The translations under genes and the position numbers were made by a program. Below the pieces are notes generated by a model, which did not search any database, had not been told where the DNA came from, and saw only the letters and a program-made list of their open reading frames with translations. From Acidimicrobiales bacterium (GTDB lineage: Bacteria; Actinomycetota; Acidimicrobiia; Acidimicrobiales; JAUJNH01): DNA of 25,442 bases. The stretch spans positions 1-25,442 of the forward strand of contig JBKJUI010000450.1 of NCBI GenBank assembly GCA_046590775.1. The letters are read 5' to 3'. Shown here one piece after another: positions 3,636 to 23,387 of the stretch. The first letter of the stretch is position 1. Each line of letters begins with the position of its first letter.

Positions 3636-4716
3636 GCTTCTGCACCGCCGGGCGGTACCCACGGGCGAACAGGGCGCCGCGAGCGACCTCGCTCTGGCCG
3701 GCGTCGACGAGGAGCAGCAGCACGCCACGGTCGCCCTCGGCCGAGTGGGCGATCTCGAGGTCGTAGATGTCGACGCCCAGCTCGCCGAGCAGCGTGGTGA
3801 CCTCGGCCAGGACGCCCGTGCGGTCGGGCACCGGCACCCTGACCTCGGCGACGTCGAGCGGGCGTCCGGCCGCCCGGGCCGGGAGGTTGACCCGAGCGGA
3901 CCGAGCCTTCTCGAGCGCCCGCAGCAGGGCCGCACGGTCGCCGTCGGCCACGACGGCGCGCAGGGTGTCGAGGGCCTGGCCCAGCTGCTCGAGGGTGGAC
4001 ACGATGGCGCTGCGGTTCTCGGCGCAGATGTCGAGCCAGATGCCGGGGTGGCCGGCGGCGATGCGGGTCATGTCGCGGAAGCCGCCGGCGGCCAGGCGCA
4101 GGAGCGTGGCGTGCTCGGTGGCCGCATCGGTGGCCAGCCCCATCAGGGCCGCAGCGGTGAGGTGGGGCACGTGGGACACCAGGGCCACCAGCTGGTCGTG
4201 CCGGTCGGGGGCGACGGCCACCACGTCGGCTCCGAGCGAGGCCACCACCGAGCGCACGAGCGCGAAGGCGGCCGGATCGGTGCCGACGGTGGGGGTCAGG
4301 ACCCAGGTGGCGCCCTCGAACATCGTGGCGTGGGCGCCGTCGATGCCGTCCTGCTCCGACCCGGCCATCGGATGGCCCCCGACGAAGCGCGGGTCGGCCA
4401 CCGCGTCGACCACCGACCGCTTCACCGAGCCGACGTCGGTCACCGCGCCGCCGCCGGCCGACGTCGCCGCCAGCACCTCGGCCGCCACCTCGGGGAGGGC
4501 GTGCACGGGAGTGGACAGGAACGTGATCTCCGCCGACGGGTCGATCCCGACGGCATCGAGCGCCCCGACGGCCAGCGCCTGCTGCGCCCGGCCGGGATCG
4601 GCGTCGGACCCGGTGACGTGCCAGCCGGTGGCCCGGAGAGCGTGGGCGATGGAGCCGCCGATGAGGCCGCACCCGACGACGCCGGCCCGGCGGCGGCCGC
4701 TAGTCGGGGAGGTCAT
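3628..4716 (-). CDS. tyrA: prephenate/arogenate dehydrogenase with C-terminal ACT domain
   Basis: GVVGCGLIGGS (Rossmann), TDVGSVK, FVGGHPMAGSE, VSHVPH, GGFRDMTRIA and ACT-like VPDRTGVLAEVTTLLGELGVDIYDLEI. ATG at 4716. Confidence 0.93.
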   Translation of the reverse strand: MTSPTSGRRRAGVVGCGLIGGSIAHALRATGWHVTGSDADPGRAQQALAVGALDAVGIDPSAEITFLSTPVHALPEVAAEVLAATSAGGGAVTDVGSVKRSVVDAVADPRFVGGHPMAGSEQDGIDGAHATMFEGATWVLTPTVGTDPAAFALVRSVVASLGADVVAVAPDRHDQLVALVSHVPHLTAAALMGLATDAATEHATLLRLAAGGFRDMTRIAAGHPGIWLDICAENRSAIVSTLEQLGQALDTLRAVVADGDRAALLRALEKARSARVNLPARAAGRPLDVAEVRVPVPDRTGVLAEVTTLLGELGVDIYDLEIAHSAEGDRGVLLLLVDAGQSEVARGALFARGYRPAVQKLG

Positions 4717-5065
4717 CGCGCAACCCCATGGCCTGCTCGAGGTAGACGTGGTGCAGCTCGCTGCGGGGCTTGGTGGTCTGGAGGTGCAGCAGCACGCGGA
4801 TGCAGCGGGGCGTGCCCTCGACCACGTCCAGCTCACGGGCGCAGATCAGGGGCACGTCGCCGAGGCCCATCGTGCGGGCCGCCTTGGCCGGGAACATCGA
4901 GTGGAGGTCGTCGGTGGCCGTGAACAGGATGGAGACGAGATCCTCCTTGTCCACCCCGTTCCGCTCGAGGATCCGCTCGAGGAGGGCGACCACCCGCTCG
5001 GTGATGTGCACCGGCTCGTCGGCGTCGACCGTAGTGGCACCCCGCAACGCCCGGACGGTGCCCAC
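4700..5065 (-). CDS. aroH: chorismate mutase, AroH class
   Basis: VRALRGATTV, SILFTATDDLHSMFPAKAAR, VPLICARE, PRCIRVLLH and HHVYLEQAMGLRDDL match the AroH family. Confidence 0.93.
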   Translation of the reverse strand: MGTVRALRGATTVDADEPVHITERVVALLERILERNGVDKEDLVSILFTATDDLHSMFPAKAARTMGLGDVPLICARELDVVEGTPRCIRVLLHLQTTKPRSELHHVYLEQAMGLRDDLPD

Positions 5066-5074
5066 GGCCTGGCG

Positions 5075-5080
5075 ACCCTA
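5075..5080 (-). promoter_or_regulatory. candidate -10 box (TAGGGT) for a near-leaderless aroH transcript
   Basis: TANNNT hexamer 9 nt upstream of the aroH GTG, with no Shine-Dalgarno in between. Confidence 0.4.
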
Positions 5081-5112
5081 GCCAACGGCTTGTGTGACCT
5101 CCGGCGGCCAGG

Positions 5113-5505
5113 TCAGCCGCGACCGAGGACCCGGTCGACCTGGATCTCGATCACCGTTCGATCGGGGTTGGACTGCGGCTGGTGGTAGCGGATGGCGTAG
5201 CGGCGCTCGCCCTCGAGCACGCGGTCGGCGTCGACGACCAGGCGGGCGGGGCCCTCCAGGGCCAGCCACCTGGCCCCGTCGACCTGGGCCACCACGGCCC
5301 GGGTCCCGCCGGCCACCACGTTGCGGGCCTTGCGGCTGTCTCGGCCGGTTATGACCCGGGCCACCCCGGCCGCGTCGTCCCAGGTGAAGGCGATGGCCAC
5401 CACGTGCGGGCTGCCGTCGGGGCGAACGGTGGTGAGGGTGCCGATGTGCCGCTCGGCCAGGAAGGCGAGCGCCTCCGGCGGCAGGGCAGCGGGGTCGAGG
5501 GCCAT
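5113..5505 (-). CDS. PPOX-class (pyridoxamine 5'-phosphate oxidase-like) probable F420-dependent oxidoreductase
   Basis: 130 aa from ATG 5505: FLAERHIGTLTTVRPDGSPHVVAIAFTWD...SRKARNV...WLALEGPARLV, a typical split-barrel PPOX pattern. Confidence 0.82.
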   Translation of the reverse strand: MALDPAALPPEALAFLAERHIGTLTTVRPDGSPHVVAIAFTWDDAAGVARVITGRDSRKARNVVAGGTRAVVAQVDGARWLALEGPARLVVDADRVLEGERRYAIRYHQPQSNPDRTVIEIQVDRVLGRG

Positions 5506-5524
5506 GGCCCCCGTTCCTACTCCG

Positions 5525-6790
5525 TCAGGCGGCCGCCCGGATCGAGCGGACCAGGACGTCGAGGCCCAGCTCGAGCTCGTCGTCGCTGATCGTGAGGGCC
5601 GGGACCAGGCGGACGACCTCGCCGTGCGAGCCGCACGACAGCAGCAGCACGTTCTCGGCCAGCGCCTTGGCGCGGATCTCGTCGCACACGTCACCCGATG
5701 TGAGCTCGACGCCCACCATGAGGCCGACGCCACGCACGCCGACGACGGGGCCGGGCTCGTCGACGAGCGGGCCGAGCACCTCCAGGCAGCGCTGCCCGAG
5801 CCGGTCGGCCCTCTCGAGGAGGCCGTCCTCGGCGATCACGTCGAGCACGGCCAGGGCTGAGGCGCAGGCCACCGGGTTGCCGCCGAAGGTGGTGCCGTGG
5901 GCGGCGGTCGGCCATGCTGCGAAGGTGCTGCGGCCGGCCACGATGGCGGCCAGCGGGAGCCCGCCGGCCAGCCCCTTGGCCAGGAGGAGCACGTCGGGCC
6001 CGACGCCGAACCGCTCGCCGGCGGTCCAGGCCCCCGTGCGGCCGATGCCGCACTGCACCTCGTCGAACACGAGCAGGATCCCGTGCTCGTCACAGCGGCG
6101 GCGCAGGCCGGCCAGCCACCCGTCGAGCGGCACCACGTACCCGCCCTCCCCGAGCACCGGCTCGACGATCATGGCCGCCACCTGGGCTGGGTCGACCCGC
6201 TTGTCGAAGAGGTCGTCGAGCTCGGCCAGCGCGCCCTCGGCCGAGGCGTAGCGGCGAGGGTCGCCGTAGGGCGCGATGTAGACGCTGGGAACCAGCGGCT
6301 CGTACCCGCTGCGGTAGTGGGCCTTGGTGGTCGTGAGGCTGGTGGCCCCGAGCGTGCGGCCGTGGAAGCCACCGGAGAAGGCCAAGATGCCGGGCCGGCC
6401 GGTGGTGCGGCGGGCCATCTTCATCACGCCGTCCACCACCTCGGCGCCGGTGTTGGCGAAGAACAGCTGCGGTTCCTCGAACCACGGGCAGATGGCCCCG
6501 ATCCGCTCGGCCAGCTCGATGTTCCGCGAGTGGTGGGTGGTGACGCTCGTGTGGACCAGGCGGCTGGCCTGCTCGACGATGGCCGCCGTCACCCGTGGGT
6601 GGCAGTGGCCCACCTGGGTGACCCCGATGCCGGCCGTCAGGTCCAGGACCCGCCGCCCGTCGACGTCGGTGAGCCACAGCCCCTCGCCGCTGACGGCCAC
6701 GAGATCGGAGAACCGCCCCAGCACCGGGGCCAGCACCGCCTCGTCGCGGGCCAGCCAGGACGTGGTCAGGTCGTGCTCAACGGCGGTCAC
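5525..6790 (-). CDS. class III PLP-dependent aminotransferase (GabT/ArgD-like, substrate unknown)
   Basis: LDLTAGIGVTQVGHCHP, FANTGAEVVD, FHGRTLGA, IVEPVLGEGG, LVFDEVQCGIGRTG, PLP Lys in LLAKGLAGG and HGTTFGGNP. SD AGGAG 5 nt before GTG 6790. Confidence 0.92.
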   Translation of the reverse strand: MTAVEHDLTTSWLARDEAVLAPVLGRFSDLVAVSGEGLWLTDVDGRRVLDLTAGIGVTQVGHCHPRVTAAIVEQASRLVHTSVTTHHSRNIELAERIGAICPWFEEPQLFFANTGAEVVDGVMKMARRTTGRPGILAFSGGFHGRTLGATSLTTTKAHYRSGYEPLVPSVYIAPYGDPRRYASAEGALAELDDLFDKRVDPAQVAAMIVEPVLGEGGYVVPLDGWLAGLRRRCDEHGILLVFDEVQCGIGRTGAWTAGERFGVGPDVLLLAKGLAGGLPLAAIVAGRSTFAAWPTAAHGTTFGGNPVACASALAVLDVIAEDGLLERADRLGQRCLEVLGPLVDEPGPVVGVRGVGLMVGVELTSGDVCDEIRAKALAENVLLLSCGSHGEVVRLVPALTISDDELELGLDVLVRSIRAAA

Positions 6791-6801
6791 GGCCGCTCCT
6801 C

Positions 6802-8277
6802 TCACTTGAATCGTTCGACGTCGATCTGTGCCCGCTGCAGGCGGCCGGAGTAGTCGACGTACACGGACTTCACCTCGCTGAACTGCTCGATGCCCCGGCG
6901 GCCGGCCTCGCGGAAGCCGTTGCCGGTGTGCTTGGTCCCGCCGAAGGGGAGCTGGATCTCGGCCCCGATGCTGGGGGCGTTGACGTAGACGATGCCGGTG
7001 TCGATGACCTCGACCAGGGCCAGCGCCGTGGCCAGGTCCCGGCTGTAGACGGCGGCCGACAGGCCGTAGTCGACGCCGTTCACGACGGCCGCCGCCTCCT
7101 CGGCCGACCCCACCTCGAGCACCGACAGGACGGGCCCGAACAGCTCGGTGGTGGCCACGTGGTGGGAGGGCTCGACCCCTCGGAGGATGGTCGGAGCGAA
7201 GAACGAGCCCTCGGGGCAGCTGGACGGCTGCACGGGCCCGCCCCCCACCGCCACGGTGGCCCCTTCCTCGACGGCGGTGGCCACGGCCTTCTCCAGGCGG
7301 GTGACCGAGCCGGCGTCGATCACCGGCCCGACATCGGTGCCCTTCTCAGTCGGGTCGCCGACCACCAGGGCTGCCGCCCGCTCGGCCAGCCGCTCGACCA
7401 GCTCGTCGGCCACGGCGTGGTGGACGACCAGCCGGCTGGTGGAGGTGCAGCGCTGGCCGGCGGTGCCAAAGGCGCCGAACAGCGCCCCCTCGAGGGCGAG
7501 GTCGAGGTCGGCGTCGTCGAGCACGACCATGGCGTTCTTCCCGCCGAGCTCGAGCGACACGAGCTTCGGCCCGACCTCGGCGGCGGCGGCCGCCACCTTG
7601 CGACCCGTGGCCACCGACCCGGTGAAGGACACCGCCCTGATGCCGGGGTGCACGGCGATCCTGGCGCCGACCTCGCCACCACCGTGGACCACCTGGAGCA
7701 GCCCGGCCGGGATGCCCCCGTCGATGCAGGCCTGGACGAACGCGTCGGCGCAGGCCGGCGCCAGCTCCGAGGGCTTCAGCACGACGGCGTTCCCCGCCAG
7801 CAGGGCAGGGAAGCACTTCCACGAGGGGATGGCCACCGGGAAGTTCCACGGGGTGATCAAGCCGACCACGCCGACGGGCTGGCGCGTGGTGTAGGCGAGC
7901 CGGCTGCCCAGCTCGGAGGGGACGGTCTCGCCCCAGGCCAGGCGGCCGAGCCCGGCCACGTAGCGGGCCATGTCGATCGCTTCCTGGACGTCGCCCCCCG
8001 CCTCGACGAGGACCTTGCCCGCCTCTTCGGCGACCAGGCGGGTGAGCTGCTCCTTCCGGGCCGCCAGCACGTCGCCGACGGCGCCGATCCGCTCACCTCG
8101 TAGCGGCGTGGGAACCTGCAGCCACGTCCGCTGCGCCTCAGTGGCCGCCGCCACCGCCGCATCCACCGCCTCCGACGACGATCGCGTGAACCAGCCGACG
8201 ACGCGCGACGGGTGGGCTGGGTTCACCGACGTGAAGCGCTGGTCCGCCGCCGTGCTCGGCCCATCTGTTCCGACCAT
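6802..8277 (-). CDS. NAD(P)-dependent aldehyde dehydrogenase
   Basis: ITPWNFPVAI, VLKPSE, SFTGSVATG, catalytic Glu in LELGGKNA, catalytic Cys in GQRCTS, ELFGPV and PFGGTKHTG. Confidence 0.95.
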   Translation of the reverse strand: MVGTDGPSTAADQRFTSVNPAHPSRVVGWFTRSSSEAVDAAVAAATEAQRTWLQVPTPLRGERIGAVGDVLAARKEQLTRLVAEEAGKVLVEAGGDVQEAIDMARYVAGLGRLAWGETVPSELGSRLAYTTRQPVGVVGLITPWNFPVAIPSWKCFPALLAGNAVVLKPSELAPACADAFVQACIDGGIPAGLLQVVHGGGEVGARIAVHPGIRAVSFTGSVATGRKVAAAAAEVGPKLVSLELGGKNAMVVLDDADLDLALEGALFGAFGTAGQRCTSTSRLVVHHAVADELVERLAERAAALVVGDPTEKGTDVGPVIDAGSVTRLEKAVATAVEEGATVAVGGGPVQPSSCPEGSFFAPTILRGVEPSHHVATTELFGPVLSVLEVGSAEEAAAVVNGVDYGLSAAVYSRDLATALALVEVIDTGIVYVNAPSIGAEIQLPFGGTKHTGNGFREAGRRGIEQFSEVKSVYVDYSGRLQRAQIDVERFK

Positions 8278-10859: not shown

Positions 10860-12065
10860 TCAGGAGACCCGCTCCACGATCATGGCCATCCCCTGGCCGC
10901 CCCCGACGCACATCGTCTCGAGCCCGATCCGCTTGTCGTGGTGCTCCAGGTTGTTCAGGAGCGTGGTCATGATCCGCGCTCCCGTCATCCCAAAGGGATG
11001 GCCGAGGGCGATGGCGCCACCGGCCACGTTCAGCTTGTCCCACTCGACGCCGAGGGCCCGGGCCGACGGGATCACCTGGGCGGCGAAGGCCTCGTTCAGC
11101 TCGACGAGGTCGATGTCGTCGATGGTCATTCCGGCGCGCCGGAGCGCCTGACGGGAAGCCTCGACCGGGCCGAGGCCCATGATCTCGGGATCGAGGGCGC
11201 TCACCCCCGTGGCCACGATGCGGGCCAGCGGGGTGACCCCGTGCTGGCGAGCCTTGGTGTCGCTCAGGACGATGACGGCGGCGGCGCCGTCGTTCAGCGG
11301 GCAGGCGTTGCCGGCGGTGACCTTGCCGTCGGCGCGGAACACCGGCTTCAGCTGGGCCAGGCCCTCGGTGGTGGTGCCGGGCCTCGGACCGTCGTCCTTG
11401 GCCACGACCGTGCCGTCGGCCTTTTGGACCGGCGTGATCTCCCGCTCGAAGAAGCCGATCTCCTGGCTGTGCACCGCCCGGTTCTGCGAGAGGGCGGCGA
11501 ACTCGTCCATCTCCTCGCGGGTGACGCTCTCGATCTCGGCCACGTTCTCGGCGGTCTGCCCCATGTCGATGTAGATGTCCGGAAGGCCGTCGGGGGGCGT
11601 CCACGTCGAGCCACCCGCCGCTCGCTCCTCGGAGCGCTTGGCCGCTTCGGCGAACTGCGGGTTCTTGGCCGAGCCGACGTCGCTGGTGCCGGCCCCGAAG
11701 CGGCTGACCGTCTCGACACCGGCGGCCACGAACACGTCGCCCTCGCCGGCCCGGATCGCGTGCATGGCCATGCGCATGGTCTGGAGCGAGGAAGAGCAGT
11801 AGCGGGTGACGGTCGTTCCCGGCACCCCCTCCATCCCAGCCAGGATCGCCACCACCCGGGCCATGTTGAACCCCTGCTCGCCGCCGGGGAGGCCGCAGCC
11901 GAGCATCAGGTCCTCGACCGAGGCGGGATCGACCTCGGGGACCTTGGCCAGCGCCTCTTTCACGATGAAGGCGGCCAGGTCGTCGGGGCGCTGGTCGATG
12001 AGAGATCCCTTGAAGGCGCGACCGATCGGGGTGCGCGCCGCGGCGACGATGACGGCCTCGGGCAT
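10860..12065 (-). CDS. acetyl-CoA C-acyltransferase (thiolase)
   Basis: [20 protein letters not shown] (nucleophile Cys), [18 protein letters not shown] and [13 protein letters not shown] at 12065. Confidence 0.96.
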
Positions 12066-12073
12066 GGGCCGGG

Positions 12074-12135
12074 ACGCTACTCGCACCGGTTGGATCCGAA
12101 GATCCGCGTCGTCCCGCCGCGGGCCCTCCTAGTGT
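12074..12135. promoter_or_regulatory. divergent candidate -10 boxes for thiolase (TAGCGT, minus, 12079-12074) and fucosidase (TAGTGT, plus, 12130-12135)
   Basis: TANNNT hexamers 8 and 9 nt upstream of the respective ATGs, with no SD motifs. Confidence 0.45.
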
Positions 12136-12144
12136 CCGGACGCC

Positions 12145-13503
12145 ATGACCCCGTTCCTCGGACGGCCCCTGCCGGCGTGGTGGAGCGACGCCGGTCTCGG
12201 CATCCTCGTGCACTGGGGGCCGTACTCGGTGCCCGCCTGGGCCCCTGTCGGGCCCGATCCGTTCACCGTCGCCGAGACCGACGGGTGGGGTGAGGCGCTG
12301 CGCCGGTCGCCCTATGCCGAGTGGTACTGGAACAGCCTGGAGCTCGAGGACTCGAGCGTCGCCGCCCACCACGCCGCCGCCCACGCCGGCAGCTCCTACG
12401 ACAGCTTCGCCGCCGACTTCGCCGCAGCCAGCGCCGGCATCGACGCCGACTCGTGGGCCGACCTCTTCGCCCGGGCCGGTGCCGGCTACGTGGTCCTCAC
12501 GGCGAAGCACCACGACGGCTTCCTCCTGTGGGACGCCTCGACGGTGAACCCCCATCGCGGGGCGGCATGGCAGGCCGACGAGGACCTGGTGGGCGAGGTG
12601 GCGGCGGCAACCCGGCGGCGGGGGCTGCGCTTCGGGGCGTACTACTCCGGAGGCCTCGACTGGACGTTCGGGGGCCTGGGCATCGACTCGGTCGACGCCC
12701 TCCAGGCTGCGCTCCCCACCGACCCGGCCTACGCGGCTTACGTCCGCGCCCACTGGCTCGAGCTGATCGAGCGCCACCATCCCGACGTGCTCTGGAACGA
12801 CGTCCGCCACCCGGGTGGATCCGACGATGCCCACGAGCTCTTCGCCCGGTTCTACCGAGAGGTTCCCGACGGGGTGGTGAACGACCGGTTCGACCTCCTC
12901 GGCGTCGCCGCCGGCAGCGCCCACGCCGACATCGTCACCCCGGAGCACCGCGCCCTCTCGGGCGTGCCCCGCCGGCCCTTCGAGGTGTCCCGGCCGCTCG
13001 GCGGCAGCTTCGGCTGGAACCGGGCCGAGAAGGAGGACGACCTCCTGACCACCGGGGATCTGGTCGACCTGCTCGTCGACGTCCGCAGCCGGGGCGGCAA
13101 CCTGCTGCTCGGCGTCGGACCGACCGCCCACGGCTCGATCCCCAGGCTCCAACGCCAGCGGCTCGAGGGCCTGGCCGCGTGGATGGATGTCGCCCGCGAG
13201 GCGGTGGTCGGCGCCCGGCCCTGGGAGCTTCCGGTGCTCGCCACCTCCGACGACCGCGTGGCCCGGGCCACCACCGCCGGCGGGTCCCTCTACCTCACCT
13301 TGTGCGGCCCCGGGCGCAGCAGCCGCGTCGGCATCACCGGTCTGCCCCTGCCGCCCGGGCATGACGTCCGCCTCCTCGGCCACGGCGAGCTCCGGCATCG
13401 CTCAACCGAGGGCTCGCTGGTGGTCGACCTCCCTCCCTCGGCTCCGGGCCCGCCCGTGCTGTGCATCACCCCGGCGCCGCAGCTGCGCCTGCCCGGGGGC
13501 TGA
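12145..13503 (+). CDS. alpha-L-fucosidase (glycoside hydrolase family 29)
   Basis: HWGPYSVPAW, YAEWY, VVLTAKHHDGF, FGAYYSGGLDW, nucleophile Asp in VLWND, and SRGGNLLLGVGP. No signal peptide seen. Confidence 0.92.
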   Translation: MTPFLGRPLPAWWSDAGLGILVHWGPYSVPAWAPVGPDPFTVAETDGWGEALRRSPYAEWYWNSLELEDSSVAAHHAAAHAGSSYDSFAADFAAASAGIDADSWADLFARAGAGYVVLTAKHHDGFLLWDASTVNPHRGAAWQADEDLVGEVAAATRRRGLRFGAYYSGGLDWTFGGLGIDSVDALQAALPTDPAYAAYVRAHWLELIERHHPDVLWNDVRHPGGSDDAHELFARFYREVPDGVVNDRFDLLGVAAGSAHADIVTPEHRALSGVPRRPFEVSRPLGGSFGWNRAEKEDDLLTTGDLVDLLVDVRSRGGNLLLGVGPTAHGSIPRLQRQRLEGLAAWMDVAREAVVGARPWELPVLATSDDRVARATTAGGSLYLTLCGPGRSSRVGITGLPLPPGHDVRLLGHGELRHRSTEGSLVVDLPPSAPGPPVLCITPAPQLRLPGG

Positions 13504-13695
13504 TCGGTCCATCGCCCAGGCAAGGTCCGTGGCGCATGCGAGCATGCCTTCAGCATCGACGCCAAGCACGGCGCGCCCGACTTCGCCCGCGACGTGGCCT
13601 TCCAAAAGATCACCGCCCGGGTCGAGGGCACCCGGATGGCTTCGGAGCAGCTCGAGGTCCGATCGATGTTAAAGGCGCCGGCTGGGCCCATAGCC

Positions 13696-14664
13696 TCAGC
13701 CGGCGTCTCCCACACCTCGAGAGTTTTCCTTGCGCTCCGATCGCCGTGCGCTCCACATGGTGTGCTCGCGGCTGATGGCGTTCTCCGCCTCGTCCACGAA
13801 CGCGGCCCACTCGGCCTCGGCGCCGACGGCCGGGAGGAGGTCGGCGATACTGGCGAGTTCGAGGGCGGCGACGGTGTAGGCGCTGGCGAGGGTGTCGTGC
13901 TGCTTGGTCTGGAGGTAGGCGGTGGCTCCCGCCACCACGGCCGCGACCACGGGAAGCAGGTCGAGCGGGAGATTGGTGGTGGCCTTCAGGACGGCGCCGA
14001 GGGCGCCGGCGGCCTCGACACCCAGCAGGAAGGCGTTCCAGCGATCAGCGCAGCGCTTGTTCCAGCGCGCCTTGCGGGCGTACCAGTCCCGCTGCTGCTG
14101 GATCCTGCCCCCGGCGTACACCGCTTTGCGCGCGTCGAGCGAGAGGCCGCGCAGGCCTCGCATGCCATCGGTGATCTGGCGCCCGCCCTCAGCGCTCGGG
14201 ACGAGCTCGAGGTCGCGCAGGTCGACGGGGAGGTCCCGCAGCCGGCCTATGAGCTCGGCGTCGGCGGCGGCCCACGTACCGTCGGGCTTGAGCGGGAACG
14301 GCTTTCCCCCGACTGCGTAGCGCCACGCCATCGTCCTGGCCGACTCGGCCGCAGCCCGTCCGTCGTACCAGGAGCGTTCGAGCTTTCGCCGCTGCATGCC
14401 GGCGCGGAGCACGCCGGCGAGGGCGAAGGCGGAAGCGGCCACGATGGCGGCGACGTCGGTGCCCGTGCCCGGCCAGCGCCACGTGAAGGCACCGAAGGCG
14501 GCGGCCACGGCGAGGGCCACGAGCTGGATTCGCATGCTGGTGAGGAACCGGGCCTGCGCGGCCAGCGAGCTCTGGTCGGCGGCGCGGAAGACCTCCGGCA
14601 GATCCGGGTCAGAGAGGCCGGTGGGCTGCGGCCCGGATGACCCGCCGCCGCCCGCTCCTGCCAT
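13696..14664 (-). CDS. tandem SLATT-domain (DUF4231-like) 4-TM membrane effector
   Basis: Two 2-TM units, each preceded or followed by conserved polar motifs: AADQSSLAAQARF-TM-TM-WYDGRAAAESARTMAWRYAVGGKPF and YAGGRIQQQRDWYARKARWN-TM-TM-LASAYTVAALEL...VDEAENAISREHTMW. Pattern recalled as SLATT_3 + SLATT_1 and needs HMM confirmation. ATG 14664. Confidence 0.82.
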   Translation of the reverse strand: MAGAGGGGSSGPQPTGLSDPDLPEVFRAADQSSLAAQARFLTSMRIQLVALAVAAAFGAFTWRWPGTGTDVAAIVAASAFALAGVLRAGMQRRKLERSWYDGRAAAESARTMAWRYAVGGKPFPLKPDGTWAAADAELIGRLRDLPVDLRDLELVPSAEGGRQITDGMRGLRGLSLDARKAVYAGGRIQQQRDWYARKARWNKRCADRWNAFLLGVEAAGALGAVLKATTNLPLDLLPVVAAVVAGATAYLQTKQHDTLASAYTVAALELASIADLLPAVGAEAEWAAFVDEAENAISREHTMWSARRSERKENSRGVGDAG

Positions 14665-14670
14665 GCCAAG

Positions 14671-14676
14671 ATCGTA
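14671..14676 (-). promoter_or_regulatory. -10 box (TACGAT) for leaderless SLATT transcript
   Basis: Minus strand reads TACGAT-cttggc-ATG, a 6-nt spacing to ATG 14664. Confidence 0.6.
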
Positions 14677-14754
14677 ACCAGGAGCCCGATGAGGACGCTC
14701 GTGCCGCCGCAATGCCCGGGTACGTCATCGCCCGGTCTGGCTGAGGAGATCGCC

Positions 14755-16047
14755 ATGGCAGACAAGATGTGCTTCGTCATCATGGGCTTCGGCACGAAGA
14801 CCGATTTCGTAACCGGCCGCTCCCTCGACCTCGACAAGTCCTACCGGACCCTCATCCGACCTGCCGTAGAGAATGCCGGCCTCAGATGCGTGCGAGCCGA
14901 CGAGATCGTTCACGCCGGCTCGATCGACGTCACGATGTACCGGCACCTCCTCAACGCCGACCTCGTGATCGCCGACATCTCGACGTGCAACCCCAACGCC
15001 CTCTACGAGCTGGGCGTCCGCCACGCCCTGCGGCCGTTCACCACCATCACCATCGCCGAGGACAAGATCACCTACCCCTTCGACGTCAGCCACATCGCGA
15101 TCCGCCACTACCAGCACCTCGGTCAGGGGATCGACTTCGAGGAGGCCGTCCGCTTCCGCGGCGAGCTCACCTCGGCCATCCAAACCCTGCTGGAGCGTCC
15201 CGAGCCCGACAGCCCGGTGTACAGCAGCGTCAGCGGGCTGAATCCGCCGATCATCGAGCTGGTGGCCAAAGCAGAAGCCGCCGCCACCGAGCCTCCCGCT
15301 CCCGAGTCGGACGTGACCCTCAGCGTCCTCACCCAGCGAGCCGAGGCGGCCCTCGCCGCAAGCCGGTTCGACGAGGCGAAAATGCTGTTCTCGGCGGCCC
15401 GGGTCATCCGCGACGACCCGTTCCTGGTCCAGCGGCTGGCCCTGGCCACCTACAAGAGCCGCTCGCCGAGCGACGCCGAGGCCCTGGAGGCACTGGAGGA
15501 GGCCAAGGCCATCCTGAGGGGGCTTGACCCCGAGGTGTCGAACGACCCCGAGACGCTGGGCCTTTGGGGGGCGGTCCACAAGCGGCTCTGGAGCGCCACG
15601 GGCGGGCACGACCACCTTGACACAGCCATCCTGGCCTACGAGCGGGGCTTCGACATCCGAAACGACTACTACAACGGGATCAACCTGGCCTTCCTGCTCA
15701 ACCTGCGGGCCACCGTCTCGTCGCCCGCCGAGCAGATCGCAGACTTCGTGAACGCCGAGCGAGTTCGCCGACGGGTGATTCCCCTGTGCGAGCGACAGCT
15801 GCCCATCGCCGCCTCCCCACCAGAGCGCTACTGGCTCCAGGCCACCCTGGCCGAGGCCCACCTGGGCATCGGGGACGAGCCAACCGGTGCAGCGTGGCTG
15901 GAGCGGGCGAGGCGAGAACCGGTGGCGGCCTGGATGTTCGACACGACGCAGAAACAGCTCGCCGAGCTCCGGGAGCTCCTGAAACCCTCGCCGCTGGAGA
16001 TGATCCGGACCTCGTTCCCCGGAGCGGGCCGAGCCGGCTCGCGGTAG
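14755..16047 (+). CDS. nucleoside deoxyribosyltransferase/deoxyribohydrolase-like domain + TPR-S (MAP3K TRAF-binding/DUF4071-like) protein
   Basis: N-term CFVIMGFG...LIRPAVENAGLRCVRADE...ADLVIADISTCNPNALYELGVRHAL (NDT-like fold, Glu codon 15007-15009). C-term helical repeats FLVQRLALATYK, DPETLGLWGAVHKRLW, AYERGFDIRNDYYNGINLAFL, YWLQATLAEAHL. SD GAGGAG 6 nt before ATG 14755. Confidence 0.8.
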   Translation: MADKMCFVIMGFGTKTDFVTGRSLDLDKSYRTLIRPAVENAGLRCVRADEIVHAGSIDVTMYRHLLNADLVIADISTCNPNALYELGVRHALRPFTTITIAEDKITYPFDVSHIAIRHYQHLGQGIDFEEAVRFRGELTSAIQTLLERPEPDSPVYSSVSGLNPPIIELVAKAEAAATEPPAPESDVTLSVLTQRAEAALAASRFDEAKMLFSAARVIRDDPFLVQRLALATYKSRSPSDAEALEALEEAKAILRGLDPEVSNDPETLGLWGAVHKRLWSATGGHDHLDTAILAYERGFDIRNDYYNGINLAFLLNLRATVSSPAEQIADFVNAERVRRRVIPLCERQLPIAASPPERYWLQATLAEAHLGIGDEPTGAAWLERARREPVAAWMFDTTQKQLAELRELLKPSPLEMIRTSFPGAGRAGSR

Positions 16048-16103
16048 CAGTCGATCATCTCGTGCAAGATGAGCTTGCGACGTCTTGGTCGTCGTGAGAA
16101 AGG

Positions 16104-18896
16104 GTGGCGGGGGTGACCAACCGGGACGATGAGGAGCGGGCGGCGCCCGAGCGGAGCTCGTTCAAGGCGTTCATCTCCTACAGCCATGCCGTGGACGGGA
16201 AGCTGGCACCCCGCCTCCAGCGGGCGTTGCACGGATTCGCCAAGCCCTGGTACCGCCTGCGGGCCATCCGGGTCTTCCGTGACGAGACCAACCTTGCCGC
16301 CAACCCTGGATTGTGGTCTTCGATCGCCCAGGCGTTGGACGCATCGGAGTTCTTCATCCTGCTGAGCTCTCCCGCCGCGGCGCAGTCAGAATGGGTGGAG
16401 CGGGAGGTGGCGCACTGGACCCAGCACAGGACCGTTGAGACCCTGCTGGTCGTGCTGACCCAGGGCGAGATCGACTGGGACGACGAGGCGGGCGACTTCA
16501 ACTGGACCAGGACCACTGCCCTGCCCGTCGCACTGCGGGGCACCTTCACCGAGGAGCCTCGCTTCATCGACCTTCGTTGGACGAACGGGGAGCTGGACCT
16601 GTCGCTGGCCAACCCCCGCTTCCGGGACGCCGTGGCCGACCTGGCGGCAACCCTGCACCGGCGACCGAAGGACGAGATCGTCGGCGACGACGTTCGTGAG
16701 CACCGCCGCAGGCTTCGCCTGGCCAGGGCGGCCGTGGCGGTCGTCACGTCCTTGGCGCTGGTAGCCGGCGCCTTGGCGACGGTCGCCTTCGATCAGCGCA
16801 ACGCAGCGCGGCGCCAACGTGACGCTGCCGAATCACGGCGGCTGGCCGGGCAGGCCGTGACCGACTTGGGCTCCCGGCTCGACCGGTCCCTCCTCCTGGC
16901 CGTCGAGGCCGTCAACCGGCGTGATACTCCCGAGGCTCGCGGCGCGCTCCTGGCTGGCCTCCAGCGCACGTCGCAGGTGCGCGCTTTCCTGTCCGTCGGG
17001 GCCACGGCCGTCAACGCGGTTGCCTTCAGCCCGGACGGCGCCTTGGTGGCATCGGCCGGCAAGGACGACGCGGTCACCCTCTCGGACACCCGGACGCACG
17101 CCCGGGTGGCCGAACCTCTCGTCGGCCACGAGGAGGACGTCACGGCCGTGGCGTTCAGCCCAGACGGGAGGAGCCTGGCCTCGGCCGGCGGCGACGGCAC
17201 CGTCAGGCTGTGGGACGTGGAGGCGCGGGCGCCGCGCCGCGGCCCGCTTCGAGGCCACCAGGAAGTGGTCACCAGCGTGGCCTTCACGCCCGACGGCCGG
17301 CTCCTGGCCTCGGGCAGCCTGGACCGCAGCATCCGCCTGTGGGACGTGGCGACGGGCGAGGCGGTCGGCGAGCTCAACGGCCACACCGACACCGTCCGCA
17401 GCGTCGCAGTGAGCCCCGACGGCTCCACGCTGGCGTCGGCTGGCGTCGACGGGACGATCCGGCTGTGGGACATCGCCACGAGGCAGGCACGGGGGTCGCC
17501 TCTCGTCGGCCATGCAGGCGCCGTCACCAGTGTGGCGTTCAGCCGCGACGGTGCCCTCCTAGCCTCCGGCGGCGCCGACAAGGCCGTGATCCTCTGGGAC
17601 GTCGCCGCTGGTCGTCCTGACGGTGAGCCGTTGGTCTCGCACACCGAAGCCGTTCGCACGGTGGCCTTCTCACCCGACGGTGCGACGCTGGCATCGGCTG
17701 GCGACCGGTCGATCGTGGTGTGGGACGTGGCCAGCCGCTCCCGCCGAGGACGGCCACTCAGCGGCCATCAGCAGGCGGTGACGGGGGTCGCGTTCAGCCC
17801 GGGCGGCGACCTGCTGGCCTCCGGAAGCGACGACAGGACCGTGATCCTGTGGAACGTCGGCCGGGAGCAGAACCTCGCTCGGCGGCTGCCGGGTCATGAG
17901 GGACCGGCCCGCACGCTCGCCTTCAGCCCGGACGCCGAGCTCCTGGCATCGGGCGGCGACGACGGCTCCGTCCTCCTGTGGGACGTGACGCGAGGAGAGC
18001 GACGCACTGACCCCCTCCGAGGCCATGCCGGCCCCGTCCGCAGCGTCGCCTTCAGCCCGGACGGGACGCTCCTGGCCTCGGGTGGAAGTGACGACGCCAT
18101 CCTCCTCTGGGATGTCTCGGAGCGAGCGCGTCTGGTCGGCCGGCTGCCCGTCGCCGCACCCGTCTACGGATTGACCTTTGATCCGAGTGGGAGAATACTG
18201 GCCTCAGGCGGAGAGGACGGCACCATCGTGTTGTGGGACGTGGAGGATCGGAAGGCGGAGGGCGCCGTGCTGTCCAAGCACGACGGGACCGTCCGTGGCG
18301 TGGCCTTCAGCCCAGACGGCAAAGCGCTGGTCTCGGCCGGTGACGATAAGACGGTCCGGGTCTGGGACGTCGCCCGGCGAGCGCCGGTGGGGGAACCACT
18401 CGAGGGTCACCTCGGACCGGTCCGGTCCGTCGCCTTCAGCGCCGACGGCCGGACGATCGCCTCGGGGAGCATCGACACCACGGTGATCCTCTGGGACGTC
18501 GGCACCCGCCGTCGGCTCGGTGAGGCACTGACGACCCACCGCACCTTCGTGACCTCCGTCGCCTTCAGCCCGGACGGCCAGCTGCTGGCGTCAGGCGGCT
18601 TCGACGAGGACGTGCGGCTGGCCACCGTGCTGTCACGGGAACGGGTGGCCACGCCCCTGGGCGAGGCCCTGAGCGGCCGCCAAGGACAGGTGACCAGCGT
18701 GGCGTTCGGCACCGACACGCGCCTGGCGTCGGCCGGCACGGACGGCACCATCCTCCTGTGGGACCTCAACCCCAGGTCGGGGGCGACGAAGGCGTGCGCC
18801 ATCGCCAATCGCACCTTGAGCCGCTCGGAGTGGAGCCAGTTCGTCGGGACCGGGACTCGCTTCCGCCCACGGTGCCGACCGGAGGTGGCGCCGTGA
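16104..18896 (+). CDS. TIR domain - transmembrane helix - 14x WD40 repeat protein
   Basis: TIR: AFISYSH, VFRDETNL, ALDASEFFILLSSP, SEWVEREV (catalytic-position Glu 16404-16406). Hydrophobic segment LARAAVAVVTSLALVAGALATVAF at about 16720-16790 after RRRLR. Then 14 WD40 units and the tail ACAIANRTLSRSEWSQF. Start is GTG 16104 or 16113. Confidence 0.92.
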   Translation: MAGVTNRDDEERAAPERSSFKAFISYSHAVDGKLAPRLQRALHGFAKPWYRLRAIRVFRDETNLAANPGLWSSIAQALDASEFFILLSSPAAAQSEWVEREVAHWTQHRTVETLLVVLTQGEIDWDDEAGDFNWTRTTALPVALRGTFTEEPRFIDLRWTNGELDLSLANPRFRDAVADLAATLHRRPKDEIVGDDVREHRRRLRLARAAVAVVTSLALVAGALATVAFDQRNAARRQRDAAESRRLAGQAVTDLGSRLDRSLLLAVEAVNRRDTPEARGALLAGLQRTSQVRAFLSVGATAVNAVAFSPDGALVASAGKDDAVTLSDTRTHARVAEPLVGHEEDVTAVAFSPDGRSLASAGGDGTVRLWDVEARAPRRGPLRGHQEVVTSVAFTPDGRLLASGSLDRSIRLWDVATGEAVGELNGHTDTVRSVAVSPDGSTLASAGVDGTIRLWDIATRQARGSPLVGHAGAVTSVAFSRDGALLASGGADKAVILWDVAAGRPDGEPLVSHTEAVRTVAFSPDGATLASAGDRSIVVWDVASRSRRGRPLSGHQQAVTGVAFSPGGDLLASGSDDRTVILWNVGREQNLARRLPGHEGPARTLAFSPDAELLASGGDDGSVLLWDVTRGERRTDPLRGHAGPVRSVAFSPDGTLLASGGSDDAILLWDVSERARLVGRLPVAAPVYGLTFDPSGRILASGGEDGTIVLWDVEDRKAEGAVLSKHDGTVRGVAFSPDGKALVSAGDDKTVRVWDVARRAPVGEPLEGHLGPVRSVAFSADGRTIASGSIDTTVILWDVGTRRRLGEALTTHRTFVTSVAFSPDGQLLASGGFDEDVRLATVLSRERVATPLGEALSGRQGQVTSVAFGTDTRLASAGTDGTILLWDLNPRSGATKACAIANRTLSRSEWSQFVGTGTRFRPRCRPEVAP
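17007..18764 (+). repeat. 14 coding WD40 repeats (probably two 7-bladed beta-propellers)
   Basis: Hand count of GH..V.SVAFSPDG..LASG..D..V.LWD units gives 14, each ~41-44 aa and degenerate at DNA level. Confidence 0.9.
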
Positions 18897-19585
18897 GGGG
18901 CCTGGCGAGGATCGTGGCCGGCGCGGCCGGCTGCGCCCTCCTCTGCCTGGGCCCCGCATCCCCGGCCGTGGCGGCCACGACGACCGTCAACATCCGGCAG
19001 GCGAACTACGAGCCACAGCTCGTGACGGTCTCCGTCGGGAGCACCGTCACCTGGTTGAACCTGGACAACGAGGCCCACACGGTGATCTCGGACGACGCCC
19101 TGTTCGACTCGAGCCCACGATGCCAGGACGAGGGCCGGGAACCGGGCAGCAGGGACTGCGGCGTGGCGCAGAACGCGAAGTTCTCCTACACCTTCACCCG
19201 AACCGGCACGTACCAGTACTTCTGCATGTTCGACGGGGCGTCGGCGGGCAATGGCATGTCGGGGAAGGTGAAGGTCATCCCGGCGTCGCCCACCACGCAG
19301 ACCTCGCCCACCACGCAGACCCCGCAGACGAGGACCCAGCCCACCCAGCCGGCGACCACGATCGTCGGCACAACGACAACGGATCAAGTCGTCGAGTCCA
19401 CCACGACCCAGCAAGCCGACACGTCCACCACGACGCCAGCTCCGTTGACCTTGCCCATCAGCTCGGACGAGGATCCGGAGGGTGGCGGATCGGCCCTACC
19501 CGTCGTGGCCGGTTTTGCCGTTGTGACCGGGGCTGCCCTTGCGGGAGCAGCCTGGTTCTGGCGGCGCCGGCGCCCCAGCGGCTAG
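18893..19585 (+). CDS. secreted cupredoxin/plastocyanin-like domain + Thr-rich stalk + C-terminal TM anchor
   Basis: Signal peptide-like ...PAVAA, then VTVSVGSTVTWLNLDNEAHTV...FSYTFTRTGTYQYFCMFD...GMSGKVKV, a T/P/Q-rich linker, a hydrophobic helix and a WRRRRP tail. GTG 18893 overlaps the TIR-WD40 stop (GTGA) with SD GGAGGT. Confidence 0.82.
   Translation: MRGLARIVAGAAGCALLCLGPASPAVAATTTVNIRQANYEPQLVTVSVGSTVTWLNLDNEAHTVISDDALFDSSPRCQDEGREPGSRDCGVAQNAKFSYTFTRTGTYQYFCMFDGASAGNGMSGKVKVIPASPTTQTSPTTQTPQTRTQPTQPATTIVGTTTTDQVVESTTTQQADTSTTTPAPLTLPISSDEDPEGGGSALPVVAGFAVVTGAALAGAAWFWRRRRPSG
19286..19321 (+). repeat. exact 18-nt tandem duplication (SPTTQT x2) in the Thr-rich stalk
   Basis: TCGCCCACCACGCAGACC at 19286-19303 and 19304-19321. 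Confidence 0.9.
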
Positions 19586-19769
19586 CAGCGGTCTGGGGGG
19601 CGGGAGGTCGCCGGTGCGGCGGCCGGCGAGGGGCCTCGATGGGTTCCTGCGCCTCGACGGCTTCTGAGACTCGGGGGTACCGGGCTCGACCGCCCGGCGC
19701 AGCACCGCCTTGGCCTCCTCACGATCGGGAGGGCGGTCGCGGCGCCCACCCCTAGCCTGACCCGGCGAC

Positions 19770-20699
19770 GTGGCCGACGACCTGCCGAGCCGGTACACCG
19801 AGCTCTCCGCCGAGGAGTGGGGCCGGCTGCGGGCCTCGACCCCGATGACGCTCGACGAGGCCGAGCTGGCCTCGTTGCGGGGCCAGCTGGACCCCCGCCT
19901 CGAGCTGTCCGAGGTGGAGGGCGTCTACCTTCCGCTGTCCCGCCTGCTCAACCTGCACGTCGTCGCCGCCCAGGGATTGGCGGCGGCCACCGACCGCTTC
20001 CTCGGTCGACCGGCGCGGAGGCCGCCATTCGTCATCGGGGTGGCCGGCAGCGTCGCCGTGGGCAAGTCGACCACGGCCCGCCTGCTGCAGGCCCTCCTCT
20101 CCCGCTGGCCGACCACGCCGACGGTCGACCTCGTCACCACCGACGGCTTCCTCCACCCGAACGCCGCGCTGGAGCGGCGGGGGCTGCTGGCCCGCAAGGG
20201 CTTCCCTGAGTCGTACGACGTCCGGCGCCTCCTGCGCTTCCTGGCCGACGTGAAGGCCGGGAAGGCCCAGGTCGCCGCCCCGGTGTACAGCCACGTGCTG
20301 TACGACATCGTCCCCGGGCGGACCCAGGTCGTCGCCGCGCCCGACATCGTGGTGGTCGAGGGTCTCAACGTGCTGTCGACCTCGGTGGCGGCCGAGGTCG
20401 TGGTCAGCGACTTCTTCGACTTCACGGTCTACGTCGACGCCGACGAGGCCGACATCGAGGCCTGGTACGTCGAGCGGTTCCTCGGGCTCTGCGCCACCGT
20501 GTTCCGGGACCCTGCGTCGTACTTCCACCGCTTCGCCGCCCTCGAGCCCGACGAGGCCGTCGCCACCGCACTCAGACTCTGGTCGTCGATCAACGCAGTG
20601 AACCTGCGGGAGAACATCCTTCCCACCCGCGAGCGGGCCCACCTCATCCTGGAGAAGGGCGCCGGCCACCGCGTCCGCCGGGTCCGCCTGCGCGTCTGA
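19770..20699 (+). CDS. coaA: type I pantothenate kinase
   Basis: [66 protein letters not shown] and [17 protein letters not shown]. Confidence 0.97.
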
Positions 20700-20785: not shown

Positions 20786-21685
20786 CGAGTGGCGGTCGAT
20801 GTAGGCCGCCGCCGCCTCGGGGCTCAGGCCGTGCGCCTCGGCCAGGCCGTCGGCGATGACGGCCCGGTAGGCCGGGCCCGGAGGGCTCAGGCCCAGGCCG
20901 GCGGCGGCCTCGTCGGTGAAGGTCACCATCGGCCAGCCCTGGTGGCGGCCGAGGGGCACGATGCAGCCGTACCAGTGGCCGGGACGGGCCACCACGCACA
21001 CCGCTTCGAGCGCCGGGACCTCCACCGACCCGACGGGGAGCCCGCACTCCTGGGCCAGCACGTCGGCGAACTGCTCCCAGGTCAGCAGCCAGGCCCGGGC
21101 GAGCGTCCTGGCGCCGGCTGTCGGGGCCGGGTCGAGGAAGGCGACCCCGCCACCCCCCCACCTCGACGACTCCCGGGCGAAGAGCAGGCGGTGCGGCACC
21201 TCCACGGCCGCCCAGCGCCATGGGGGGCTGGGGTCCCGGCAGCCCTCGAGGTAGCGGCCGAACCGGGCCGACGACAGGTTGGACCCGTAGCTCACGTACC
21301 AGGCGAAGGCACCGAGCCAGTCGCCGCCCGGGACCAGCCGCTGCCCGGAGGAGGCGACCGTGCCGGCGACGTAGGTCCACGCCTCCACCAGCTCACCGGC
21401 CTTCCCGTCCAACCGCCGCACGGTGCACCGCTCCCGCCGGTACAGGCCGCCGGCCACGTCCTCCAGCTCGTCCAGGTCGGCGAGCAGGCTCGGCTCCACG
21501 ACCGCCACCTCGCCGGCCACCGTGGACCCGGGCGCCGGCCGCACCCAGGGCCAGTCGCCCAGCCGCAGCTCGTAGCCCTCGAGGACGGCGGGTCGCATGG
21601 ACCGCCGGCCCAGCAGCCGCACGTTGTTGGCCTGCCCGGCCCGGAGGGTCCCGTAGGCGAACACCAGGTCGCCGGCTGCCGTCAC
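20780..21685 (-). CDS. protein with two tandem gamma-glutamylcyclotransferase (GGCT/AIG2-like) fold domains
   Basis: Domain 1: LVFAYGTLR...VAGEV...LADLDELE...LYRRE...AWTY. Domain 2: WYVSYGSNL...RLLFARESSRWGGGGVAFLD...PPGPAYRAVIADGLAE. GTG start at 21685. Confidence 0.78.
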   Translation of the reverse strand: MTAAGDLVFAYGTLRAGQANNVRLLGRRSMRPAVLEGYELRLGDWPWVRPAPGSTVAGEVAVVEPSLLADLDELEDVAGGLYRRERCTVRRLDGKAGELVEAWTYVAGTVASSGQRLVPGGDWLGAFAWYVSYGSNLSSARFGRYLEGCRDPSPPWRWAAVEVPHRLLFARESSRWGGGGVAFLDPAPTAGARTLARAWLLTWEQFADVLAQECGLPVGSVEVPALEAVCVVARPGHWYGCIVPLGRHQGWPMVTFTDEAAAGLGLSPPGPAYRAVIADGLAEAHGLSPEAAAAYIDRHSV

Positions 21686-21695
21686 GCCCCCTGTG

Positions 21696-21701
21696 TACCG
21701 T
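21696..21701 (+). promoter_or_regulatory. candidate -10 box (TACCGT) for the herA operon
   Basis: TANNNT 9 nt upstream of ATG 21711, inside a 25-bp divergent spacer. Confidence 0.4.
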
Positions 21702-21710
21702 GCCGAGGGG

Positions 21711-23383
<1,673 letters not shown>

Positions 23384-23387
<4 letters not shown>

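Follow-up and report, generated by a model that had tools for sequence, protein, structure and literature searches.

A TIR-TM-WD40 protein beside ThsI- and SLATT-type effectors: a probable Thoeris-type signalling module on an actinobacterial accessory island

Do four contiguous genes in the genome of an Acidimicrobiales bacterium form an immune or signalling system of a kind not yet classified, or are they a variant of one that already has a name? The genes occupy positions 13696-19585 of a 25,442-nucleotide stretch of contig JBKJUI010000450.1 (this whole stretch is referred to below as the window; its GC content is about 0.72-0.76); the genome assembly to which it belongs is fragmented, with 511 contigs totalling 3.2 Mb and a completeness of 79%. 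They encode a tandem SLATT membrane protein, a MilB-like protein with a TPR-S region, a protein in which a TIR domain is joined through a transmembrane (TM) helix to WD40 repeats (TIR-TM-WD40), and a membrane-anchored cupredoxin. An initial annotation, made from the DNA letters, read them as a four-part system outside the known types; its genes, coordinates and domains were all confirmed, as were the 90-bp divergent spacer, the 56-bp gap and the GTGA overlap between the genes. Our results suggest another classification, in which the first three genes probably make up a TIR-signalling defence module of the Thoeris type, located on a 7.7-kb island that was acquired horizontally. What sets the locus apart is that a receptor-like TIR-TM-WD40 protein stands where ThsB would be expected, and that proteins of this kind recurrently pair with TPR-S proteins; the effectors are of already known kinds.

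Three published arrangements bear on this question. In Thoeris type VII a TIR protein is combined with a SLATT effector, ThsH (Yirmiya et al., bioRxiv 10.64898/2025.12.03.692087), and in type VIII with ThsI, described as 'CMP hydrolase and TPR', the TPR being one predicted by Aravind and colleagues; both types defend against phage, their TIR makes canonical cyclic ADP-ribose (cADPR) upon infection, added cADPR is toxic, and in rare operons ThsH and ThsI both stand beside one TIR gene (Figure 5I of the same preprint). The BcTir/BcTpr pair of Bacillus cereus likewise provides phage defence, and the MilB-like N-terminal domain of BcTpr is an NADase (Liu et al., bioRxiv 10.1101/2023.05.26.542521).

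The gene at 14755-16047 (+ strand) encodes a 430-residue protein, hereafter ThsI-like, in which Pfam and fold searches delineate a MilB/NDT-like N-glycosidase domain (14755-15249), a TPR-S region (15367-15699; PF20308, 1e-24) and further helical repeats. Its start was placed at 14755 because the database version of the protein begins there and a GAGGAG motif precedes it. The N-terminal domain had no Pfam match, neither the protein nor a profile of its N-domain gave useful matches in PDB sequence searches, and a fold search with the full-length model gave generic TPR matches only, so that the assignment needed a separate model of the N-domain. With an AlphaFold2 model of residues 1-165 (pLDDT 74.8) the top fold match was the CMP N-glycosidase MilB (4JEM, E 3.2e-5, TM-score 0.60), followed by nucleoside 2'-deoxyribosyltransferases (NDTs), TIR-STING and DNPH1. 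The predicted catalytic glutamate, located by sequence comparison, is E85 (codon 15007-15009, +); it belongs to a YELG motif in which the Glu is nearly invariant across the family. Residues I9, M10, N79, P80, N81 and E85 correspond to I10, M11, N80, P81, N82 and E86, the catalytic-pocket residues of BcTpr (bioRxiv 10.1101/2023.05.26.542521).

The family to which this protein belongs is very large (5,834 matches among 8,000 candidates scored) and unusually conserved, with about 54% identity across phyla. A protein encoded on the Pseudomonas plasmid pA7J1 is 43% identical to it over 382 residues (E 2e-105), and directly 3' of the pA7J1 gene lies a gene for a 134-residue ThsB_TIR protein that, by eye, is like the published ThsB sequence of the validated type VIII system from Pseudomonas. 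Homologues at 39-42% identity are found in TIR operons of Acinetobacter and E. coli plasmids, and the plasmids that carry homologues include conjugative ones, with toxin-antitoxin genes alongside. With a CMP-hydrolase-like N-domain, a C-terminal TPR-S region and homology to ThsI-type proteins of TIR operons, the MilB-like/TPR-S protein is, as judged from its sequence, a ThsI-type Thoeris effector.

The second putative effector is encoded on the opposite strand. The gene at 13696-14664 (-) specifies a membrane protein in which SLATT_3 (14125-14598) and SLATT_1 (13753-14118) stand in tandem (Pfam 3.6e-39 and 1.3e-34; NCBIfam 8e-48 and 2.5e-32). It had been described as a four-TM tandem SLATT protein; the tandem stands, and of the helices, which are paired within each half, three exceed the hydropathy threshold while the fourth, at AFLLGVEAAGALGAVL, was judged by eye only. 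The start at 14664 is adopted because an orthologue in locus L178, 88% identical, begins at the equivalent methionine. Given this start and that of the ThsI-like gene, the divergent spacer is 90 bp long (14665-14754), with GAGGAG ahead of the ATG at 14755; a consensus scan of this spacer found no sigma-70-type promoter. A SLATT_3+SLATT_1 protein of the E. coli plasmid pKMi029_2 aligns with the window protein over its full length (25% identity over 297 residues, E 1.75e-35). The SLATT gene lies 1.4 kb from the TIR gene on the same island, which places a SLATT-domain membrane effector within a TIR locus, as in type VII, and on sequence grounds the protein is a ThsH-like effector.

That these two effectors belong together is supported by pKMi029_2 itself, a conjugative IncP plasmid on which a ThsI-like gene, two ThsB_TIR genes and a SLATT_3+SLATT_1 gene, the last in the cluster, follow one another (L180, NZ_CP147111.1, record positions 1143-4339), with a recombinase gene adjoining. 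This cluster carries homologues of both proteins, so that counterparts of the two effectors of the window occur together in one TIR cluster elsewhere. The plasmid also provides, within RefSeq, an instance of a Thoeris cluster in which types VII and VIII are combined.

The third gene, at 16104-18896 (+), begins after the 56-bp gap and encodes a 930-residue protein consisting, by Pfam and hydropathy, of a TIR domain (16170-16508), a TM helix (16734-16790), 14 WD40 stretches (about 16998-18800), whose period of 126-129 nt is also visible in the DNA, and a motif with two cysteines. The TIR domain matches TIR_2 (7e-9) and ThsB_TIR (22.5 bits against a cut-off of 21.2). In an alignment with the plant L6 TIR, Glu101 (codon 16404-16406, +) falls on the catalytic glutamate, and it is invariant in 121/121 relatives; this codon and that of E85 lie where the initial annotation had placed the catalytic residues. 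The only hydrophobic helix comprises residues 211-229 (mean Kyte-Doolittle value 2.28), and a TM segment (19 residues with a mean above 1.6) is found at the equivalent place in 121/121 relatives. Exactly one TM helix therefore separates the TIR domain from the repeat array, as a Toll-like topology would have it.

It is plausible that the WD40 array is extracytoplasmic, since the protein has just one membrane helix and a TIR NADase depends on NAD+ in the cytoplasm. The distribution of charged residues and cysteines is consistent with such an orientation. Lysine plus arginine average 4.8 in the 15 residues before the helix as opposed to 3.7 in the 15 after it, and the approximately 700 residues that follow the helix contain an even number of cysteines in 111/121 relatives and exactly two in 86, in all of which both belong to a conserved C-terminal motif, C-x3-A-x-R-[ND]-L-[ST]-x2-E-W-...-C; these counts come from 121 related, non-independent sequences, and the two conserved cysteines could serve another role. 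Paired cysteines are typical of exported actinobacterial proteins. In the window protein the only cysteines are residues 898 and 924 (codons 18795-18797 and 18873-18875, +). The motif, more fully C...A.R[ND]L[ST]..EW..F......C, forms a cap past the last WD40 blade at 18795-18875 and at the C-termini of P0125-P0244, while the remainder of the post-helix region, about 700 residues, is almost free of cysteine.

The neighbourhood of TIR-TM-WD40 genes was surveyed in 29 loci from 23 genomes and in four metagenome loci, 33 in all. The family, which has at least 683 members, is present in 23/300 genomes of the class (8%), often in several copies or in tandem arrays, and tandem paralogues are as expected for a diversifying receptor family. 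Arrays of two to four genes are seen at G223:C18:31685-41368, G264:C51:75801-82732, G141:C96:1-7823 and G229:C86:5533-9240. A gene of the TPR-S family adjoins the TIR-TM-WD40 gene in 13/29 loci, distributed over 13/23 genomes (L149, L151, L153, L155, L157, L158, L160, L161, L164, L165, L166, L172 and L174), with a gap of less than 300 bp in 11 of the 13. In L151 and L160, both strands of which were read, the two genes share a strand with the TPR-S gene in front, which is also the arrangement of the window. A Pfam domain check of six of the 13 TPR-S partners identified an adenylate/guanylate cyclase domain in four (L149, L151, L153 and L157) and BTAD plus cNMP-binding domains in the other two (L160 and L166); L172 additionally contains a cNMP-binding patatin. 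Such pairs look like a relay from a TIR-made messenger to a cyclic-nucleotide output. SLATT genes adjoin the TIR-TM-WD40 gene in 3/33 loci, one with the SLATT_3+SLATT_1 tandem of the window and an additional RyR/TrkA protein (L159), the other two with LSDAT and SLATT_3 (L093 and L094).

Seen from the side of the effectors, the associations point the same way. Among eight actinobacterial or metagenomic contigs bearing relatives of the ThsI-like gene (63-86% identity), SLATT, LSDAT, TIR_2 or patatin genes adjoin the relative in seven: SLATT_3 is followed by ThsI-like, LSDAT and TIR_2 genes in L081; three TIR genes precede ThsI-like and patatin genes in L084; an LSDAT-SLATT_3-SLATT_1 fusion follows the ThsI-like gene in contig P0029; a tandem SLATT gene diverges from it in contig P0006 and in L178; TIR_2, ThsI-like, LSDAT and a second TIR_2 gene are consecutive in contig P0013; and LSDAT follows in L179. 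In the eighth, L082, the ThsI-like gene stands alone, beside a PRK gene. For other phyla, Pfam was applied to the open reading frames (ORFs) neighbouring ThsI-family genes at 80 loci in 80 genomes, giving 155 immediate neighbours, of which TIR_2 was the commonest (15/155), followed by patatin (6), a second TPR-S (4), DUF4062 (3) and DUF4231 (2). This agrees with the figures given for BcTir/BcTpr relatives, 29/78 alone and 28/78 with Tir (bioRxiv 10.1101/2023.05.26.542521). A tblastn search of the 80 loci with the SLATT, TIR and cupredoxin proteins of the window had returned almost nothing, because these domains are too divergent, and it was superseded by the Pfam scans and by locally built hidden Markov models. 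Taken with the actinobacterial contigs, the census shows TPR-S genes recurring beside TIR, SLOG/LSDAT, patatin or SLATT genes, and the top neighbour families are mutual, TPR-S for the TIR-TM-WD40 family and TIR for the ThsI family. The logic proposed at the outset, with the TIR as generator, the TPR-S protein as enzyme and SLATT as effector, is upheld by this recurrence (15/155, 13/29 and 3/33, respectively), and the pairs TIR/TPR-S and SLATT/ThsI-like co-occur elsewhere; neither holds for the cupredoxin, which was to have been the fourth part.

The genes are part of a discrete insertion. Synteny and GC content define an accessory island at 12087-19769, bounded by a thiolase gene (10860-12086, -) on one side and a gene of the PRK/uridine-kinase family (19770-20699) on the other, both assigned by domain annotation. 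In two genomes of the same genus, G001 and G004, the thiolase and PRK genes adjoin directly, about 100 bp apart, and the island is missing, which bears out the description of the four genes as lying between housekeeping loci; a third genome of the genus has about 1.1 kb between ferrochelatase and PRK genes. The island measures 7.7 kb, has a GC content of 0.67-0.70 compared with 0.73-0.75 in the flanks, and contains a gene for an alpha-L-fucosidase (12145-13503, +; Pfam Alpha_L_fucos, 1.1e-64) in addition to the SLATT, ThsI-like, TIR-TM-WD40 and cupredoxin genes. No fucosidase gene was found at the syntenic site in G001, G003 or G004, and no ThsI-like gene in six genomes of the same family. Flanking direct (att-like) repeats and a tRNA integration site were sought at the island borders, and intrinsic terminators inside the operon, but no convincing one was found. 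We conclude that the island is a horizontally acquired insertion absent from congeners; the fucosidase is probably a passenger of the island, outside the conserved system.

Our preferred interpretation of the module is as follows. The WD40 propellers, most likely facing outwards, would be engaged by a cue, upon which the cytoplasmic TIR domain, its Glu101 intact, would turn NAD+ into a messenger of the cyclic ADP-ribose type, presumably canonical cADPR, as in Thoeris types VII and VIII. The messenger may be read in parallel by the ThsI-like and SLATT effectors: the TPR-S region would release the N-terminal N-glycosidase with its Glu85, leading to destruction of NAD+ and/or nucleotides, and the tandem SLATT protein would oligomerise and breach the membrane. 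The infected cell would then arrest or die ahead of phage release. A role for the NDT-TPR-S protein as a processing step upstream of SLATT, as first suggested, is at odds with its published role, which is that of a cADPR-activated effector or of an NADase in its own right. We consider it fairly likely that the TIR-TM-WD40 protein is the cognate signal generator for the two effectors. That it also works as an outside-in surface receptor, its double WD40 propeller sensing a cue from outside the cell or from the envelope (for instance adsorption of phage, damage to the wall or a signal given off by infected kin) and its messenger being read by the TPR-S protein, so that Toll-like logic is set on Thoeris effectors, is a tentative proposal to which we would give somewhat less than an even chance.

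Several observations weigh against this interpretation. None of the 29 TIR-TM-WD40 genome loci has a TPR-S partner of the ThsI (MilB-like) type, and about three quarters of the ThsI-family genes in the 80 genomes lack a recognisable conflict-system neighbour. L178, the nearest relative of the locus (86% nucleotide identity), matches the window at 13727-16038 only, where the SLATT and ThsI-like genes lie, and beyond this has phage-integrase fragments and a DUF4158 gene of Tn3 type; in contig P0006 the gene that follows the ThsI-like gene is on the opposite strand. By these two arrangements the TIR-TM-WD40 gene is not part of the conserved unit. The window's genome also encodes three other TIR_2 proteins of 365, 551 and 382 residues (G000:C64:3690-4055, C10:2630-3043 and C8:1571-1951). 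Compared with the TIRs that adjoin ThsI or SLATT genes in L081 and L094, their TIR domains show 42-49% identity, and the three proteins may feed the same two effectors, if multi-TIR plasmid operons are a guide. Their C-terminal regions are uncharacterised, and within 1.5 kb of them no recognisable effector was found. BLAST detects no close relationship between the window TIR and the small ThsB TIRs found in type VIII operons on plasmids (E 0.03-0.1), which leaves the effectors as the sole basis for the cADPR assignment. Finally, it is BcTpr, the TPR protein itself, that is reported to make a cADPR isomer (bioRxiv 10.1101/2023.05.26.542521); the two preprints disagree as to whether the TIR (types VII and VIII) or the TPR protein (BcTir/BcTpr) is the signal maker.

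Many of these points would be accommodated if two independent systems lay next to each other within one defence island. The SLATT/ThsI-like pair would then be self-contained, its MilB-like domain making a cADPR isomer, or would be driven by the genome's other TIRs, and the TIR-TM-WD40 protein, with or without the cupredoxin, would be its own NAD+-depleting effector. The retention of the SLATT and ThsI-like genes only in L178, the same divergent pair in P0006, the report that BcTpr both makes the isomer and depletes NAD+ itself, the resemblance of the three other TIR_2 genes to ThsI- and SLATT-linked TIRs and the many TIR-TM-WD40 genes that are solitary or in tandem arrays are all in keeping with such a division. 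However, chance is hard to credit for the adjacency of TPR-S genes in 13/29 TIR-TM-WD40 loci, with the gene order of the window reproduced in L151 and L160. The gap between the ThsI-like and TIR genes is just 56 bp, with no terminator predicted inside it, and a frameshift in L178, which splits the ThsI-like gene into pieces of 322 and 94 residues ahead of the mobile-element remnants (L178:1034-2297 and 3368-7239 for pieces and remnants together), is consistent with decay after loss of a partner. On balance we regard two separate systems as unlikely. A purpose other than antiviral defence is less probable still: a surface WD40 receptor could act through an NAD+-derived messenger on regulators of the membrane and the nucleotide pool, in physiological outside-in signalling (envelope, redox or kin sensing) or in programmed cell death. 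The probably extracytoplasmic WD40 array, the pairing of relatives with TPR-S-cyclase proteins, BTAD-cNMP-TPR-S regulators and cNMP-patatin, the occurrence of the family in 8% of the genomes of the class, often in multiple copies, and the exported cupredoxin co-translated with the TIR-TM-WD40 gene in the window would suit such a function. Against it, phage defence has been demonstrated for both effector families, the island is accessory and missing from congeners, mobile-element remnants lie beside relatives, and homologues travel on conjugative plasmids beside toxin-antitoxin genes.

The fourth gene raises the question of whether the system includes the cupredoxin. The gene at 18893-19585 (+) encodes, by Pfam and hydropathy, a signal peptide, a cupredoxin domain (18977-19276; Copper-bind, 2.3e-10), a Thr/Pro-rich stalk and a C-terminal TM segment (19493-19549), the N-terminal helix being signal-like and the C-terminal one followed by RRRR. 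If the TIR-TM-WD40 protein could not work without the anchored cupredoxin, as a co-receptor or a source of redox input, the close genetic linkage that is observed would fit: the cupredoxin's GTG start at 18893 overlaps the TGA stop of the TIR gene at 18894-18896 in the sequence GTGA, a GGAGG ribosome-binding site lies 6 nt upstream, inside the TIR gene, each of the two proteins has domains predicted to lie on the outer side of the membrane, and the cupredoxin gene is within the same insertion. As a conserved partner, however, the cupredoxin was rejected: it accompanies none of the 33 TIR-TM-WD40 loci (0/29 genome and 0/4 metagenome loci) and none of the eight close ThsI homologues, and no cupredoxin gene was found in the near-complete congeners G001, G003 and G004. 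The proposal of a four-gene system is thus not sustained, and a co-receptor of this kind is very improbable; that the cupredoxin is a true component in any capacity is hardly less so. It looks like a bystander or passenger whose co-translation with the TIR gene is predicted from the overlap. The copper-site region at 19223-19234 reads C-M-F-D...M, with Asp where type 1 sites usually have the second His, and in the stalk an 18-nt unit, TCGCCCACCACGCAGACC, is exactly duplicated at 19286-19321. The only other notable cupredoxin-like domain in the genome is in a surface-type protein of more than 700 residues, cut by the contig end (G000:C399:1-2100, L107), which also has bacterial Ig, laminin-G and fn3 domains.

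Outside the island, a 564-residue ORF without a Pfam match at 21693-23387 (+) is 90-91% identical in two genomes of the same genus, and as it is kept in both, it is a genuine gene, conserved but functionally uncharacterised. The antisense ORF at 21393-22880, which overlaps it, is far less conserved and probably spurious.

If a membrane TIR-WD40 protein really drives ThsI and SLATT effectors, surface sensing would join bacterial TIR immunity, in a layout parallel to that of animal Toll-like receptors; the known Thoeris TIRs are soluble and cytoplasmic and sense infection from inside. The pairing of TIR-TM-WD40 and TPR-S proteins, if true, would provide a concrete case, open to experiment, of TPR-S as the reader of a TIR-made messenger, with glycosidase, cyclase and transcription factor as swappable outputs.

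How, then, does the locus compare with known systems? CBASS, Pycsar and Avs were ruled out, since neither the four genes nor their flanks encode a recognisable CD-NTase, cyclase or STAND NTPase, and for CBASS and Avs this is as the initial annotation had it. PADLOC, with a 2023 library that predates types VII and VIII, gave no system-level match; it returned weak single-protein matches, namely 'TIR effector' on the MilB-like domain, ThsB and 2TM. TPR-S-centred assemblies that act on NAD+-derived signals were reportedly predicted by Burroughs and Aravind in 2020. The partner set of these assemblies and of BcTir/BcTpr, comprising TIR, SLOG/LSDAT, patatin or often none, is like that found here, as are the joining of a MilB-like glycosidase to TPR and the conserved I, M, N-P-N and E of BcTpr; unlike the module proposed here, BcTir/BcTpr involves neither SLATT nor a membrane TIR, and its TPR protein is the reported maker of the isomer.

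The closest correspondence is with Thoeris, which the locus had been said not to fit. Type VIII is matched by a MilB/CMP-hydrolase-like plus TPR-S effector beside a TIR gene with its catalytic Glu. That TIR gene is adjacent, 56 bp downstream, and passes the ThsB_TIR cut-off, if barely, yet the TM-WD40 fusion is missing in L178. Whereas ThsB has about 130 residues, the window TIR is a 930-residue TIR-TM-WD40 protein of another TIR clade, and the host is an actinobacterium while the validated systems are from Pseudomonadota. Type VII, and the operons with both ThsH and ThsI, are matched by a SLATT effector in a TIR locus with a ThsI-type gene, as on pKMi029_2; the difference is that in the window the SLATT gene is divergent and the ThsI-like gene lies between it and the TIR gene. 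With Toll-like receptors the likeness is one of architecture, implying no homology of the ectodomains: a repeat sensor, a single membrane helix and a cytoplasmic TIR domain, given the topology that we infer, but with the TIR N-terminal and the order therefore reversed, WD40 instead of leucine-rich repeats, and a TIR that is predicted to be an enzyme and not an adaptor scaffold. Three of the four genes hence map largely to a named system, as a hybrid of Thoeris types VII and VIII that also corresponds to the TPR-S assemblies predicted in 2020, and the locus is to be annotated, without counting the cupredoxin, as a Thoeris type VII/VIII-like module and not as an unclassified one.

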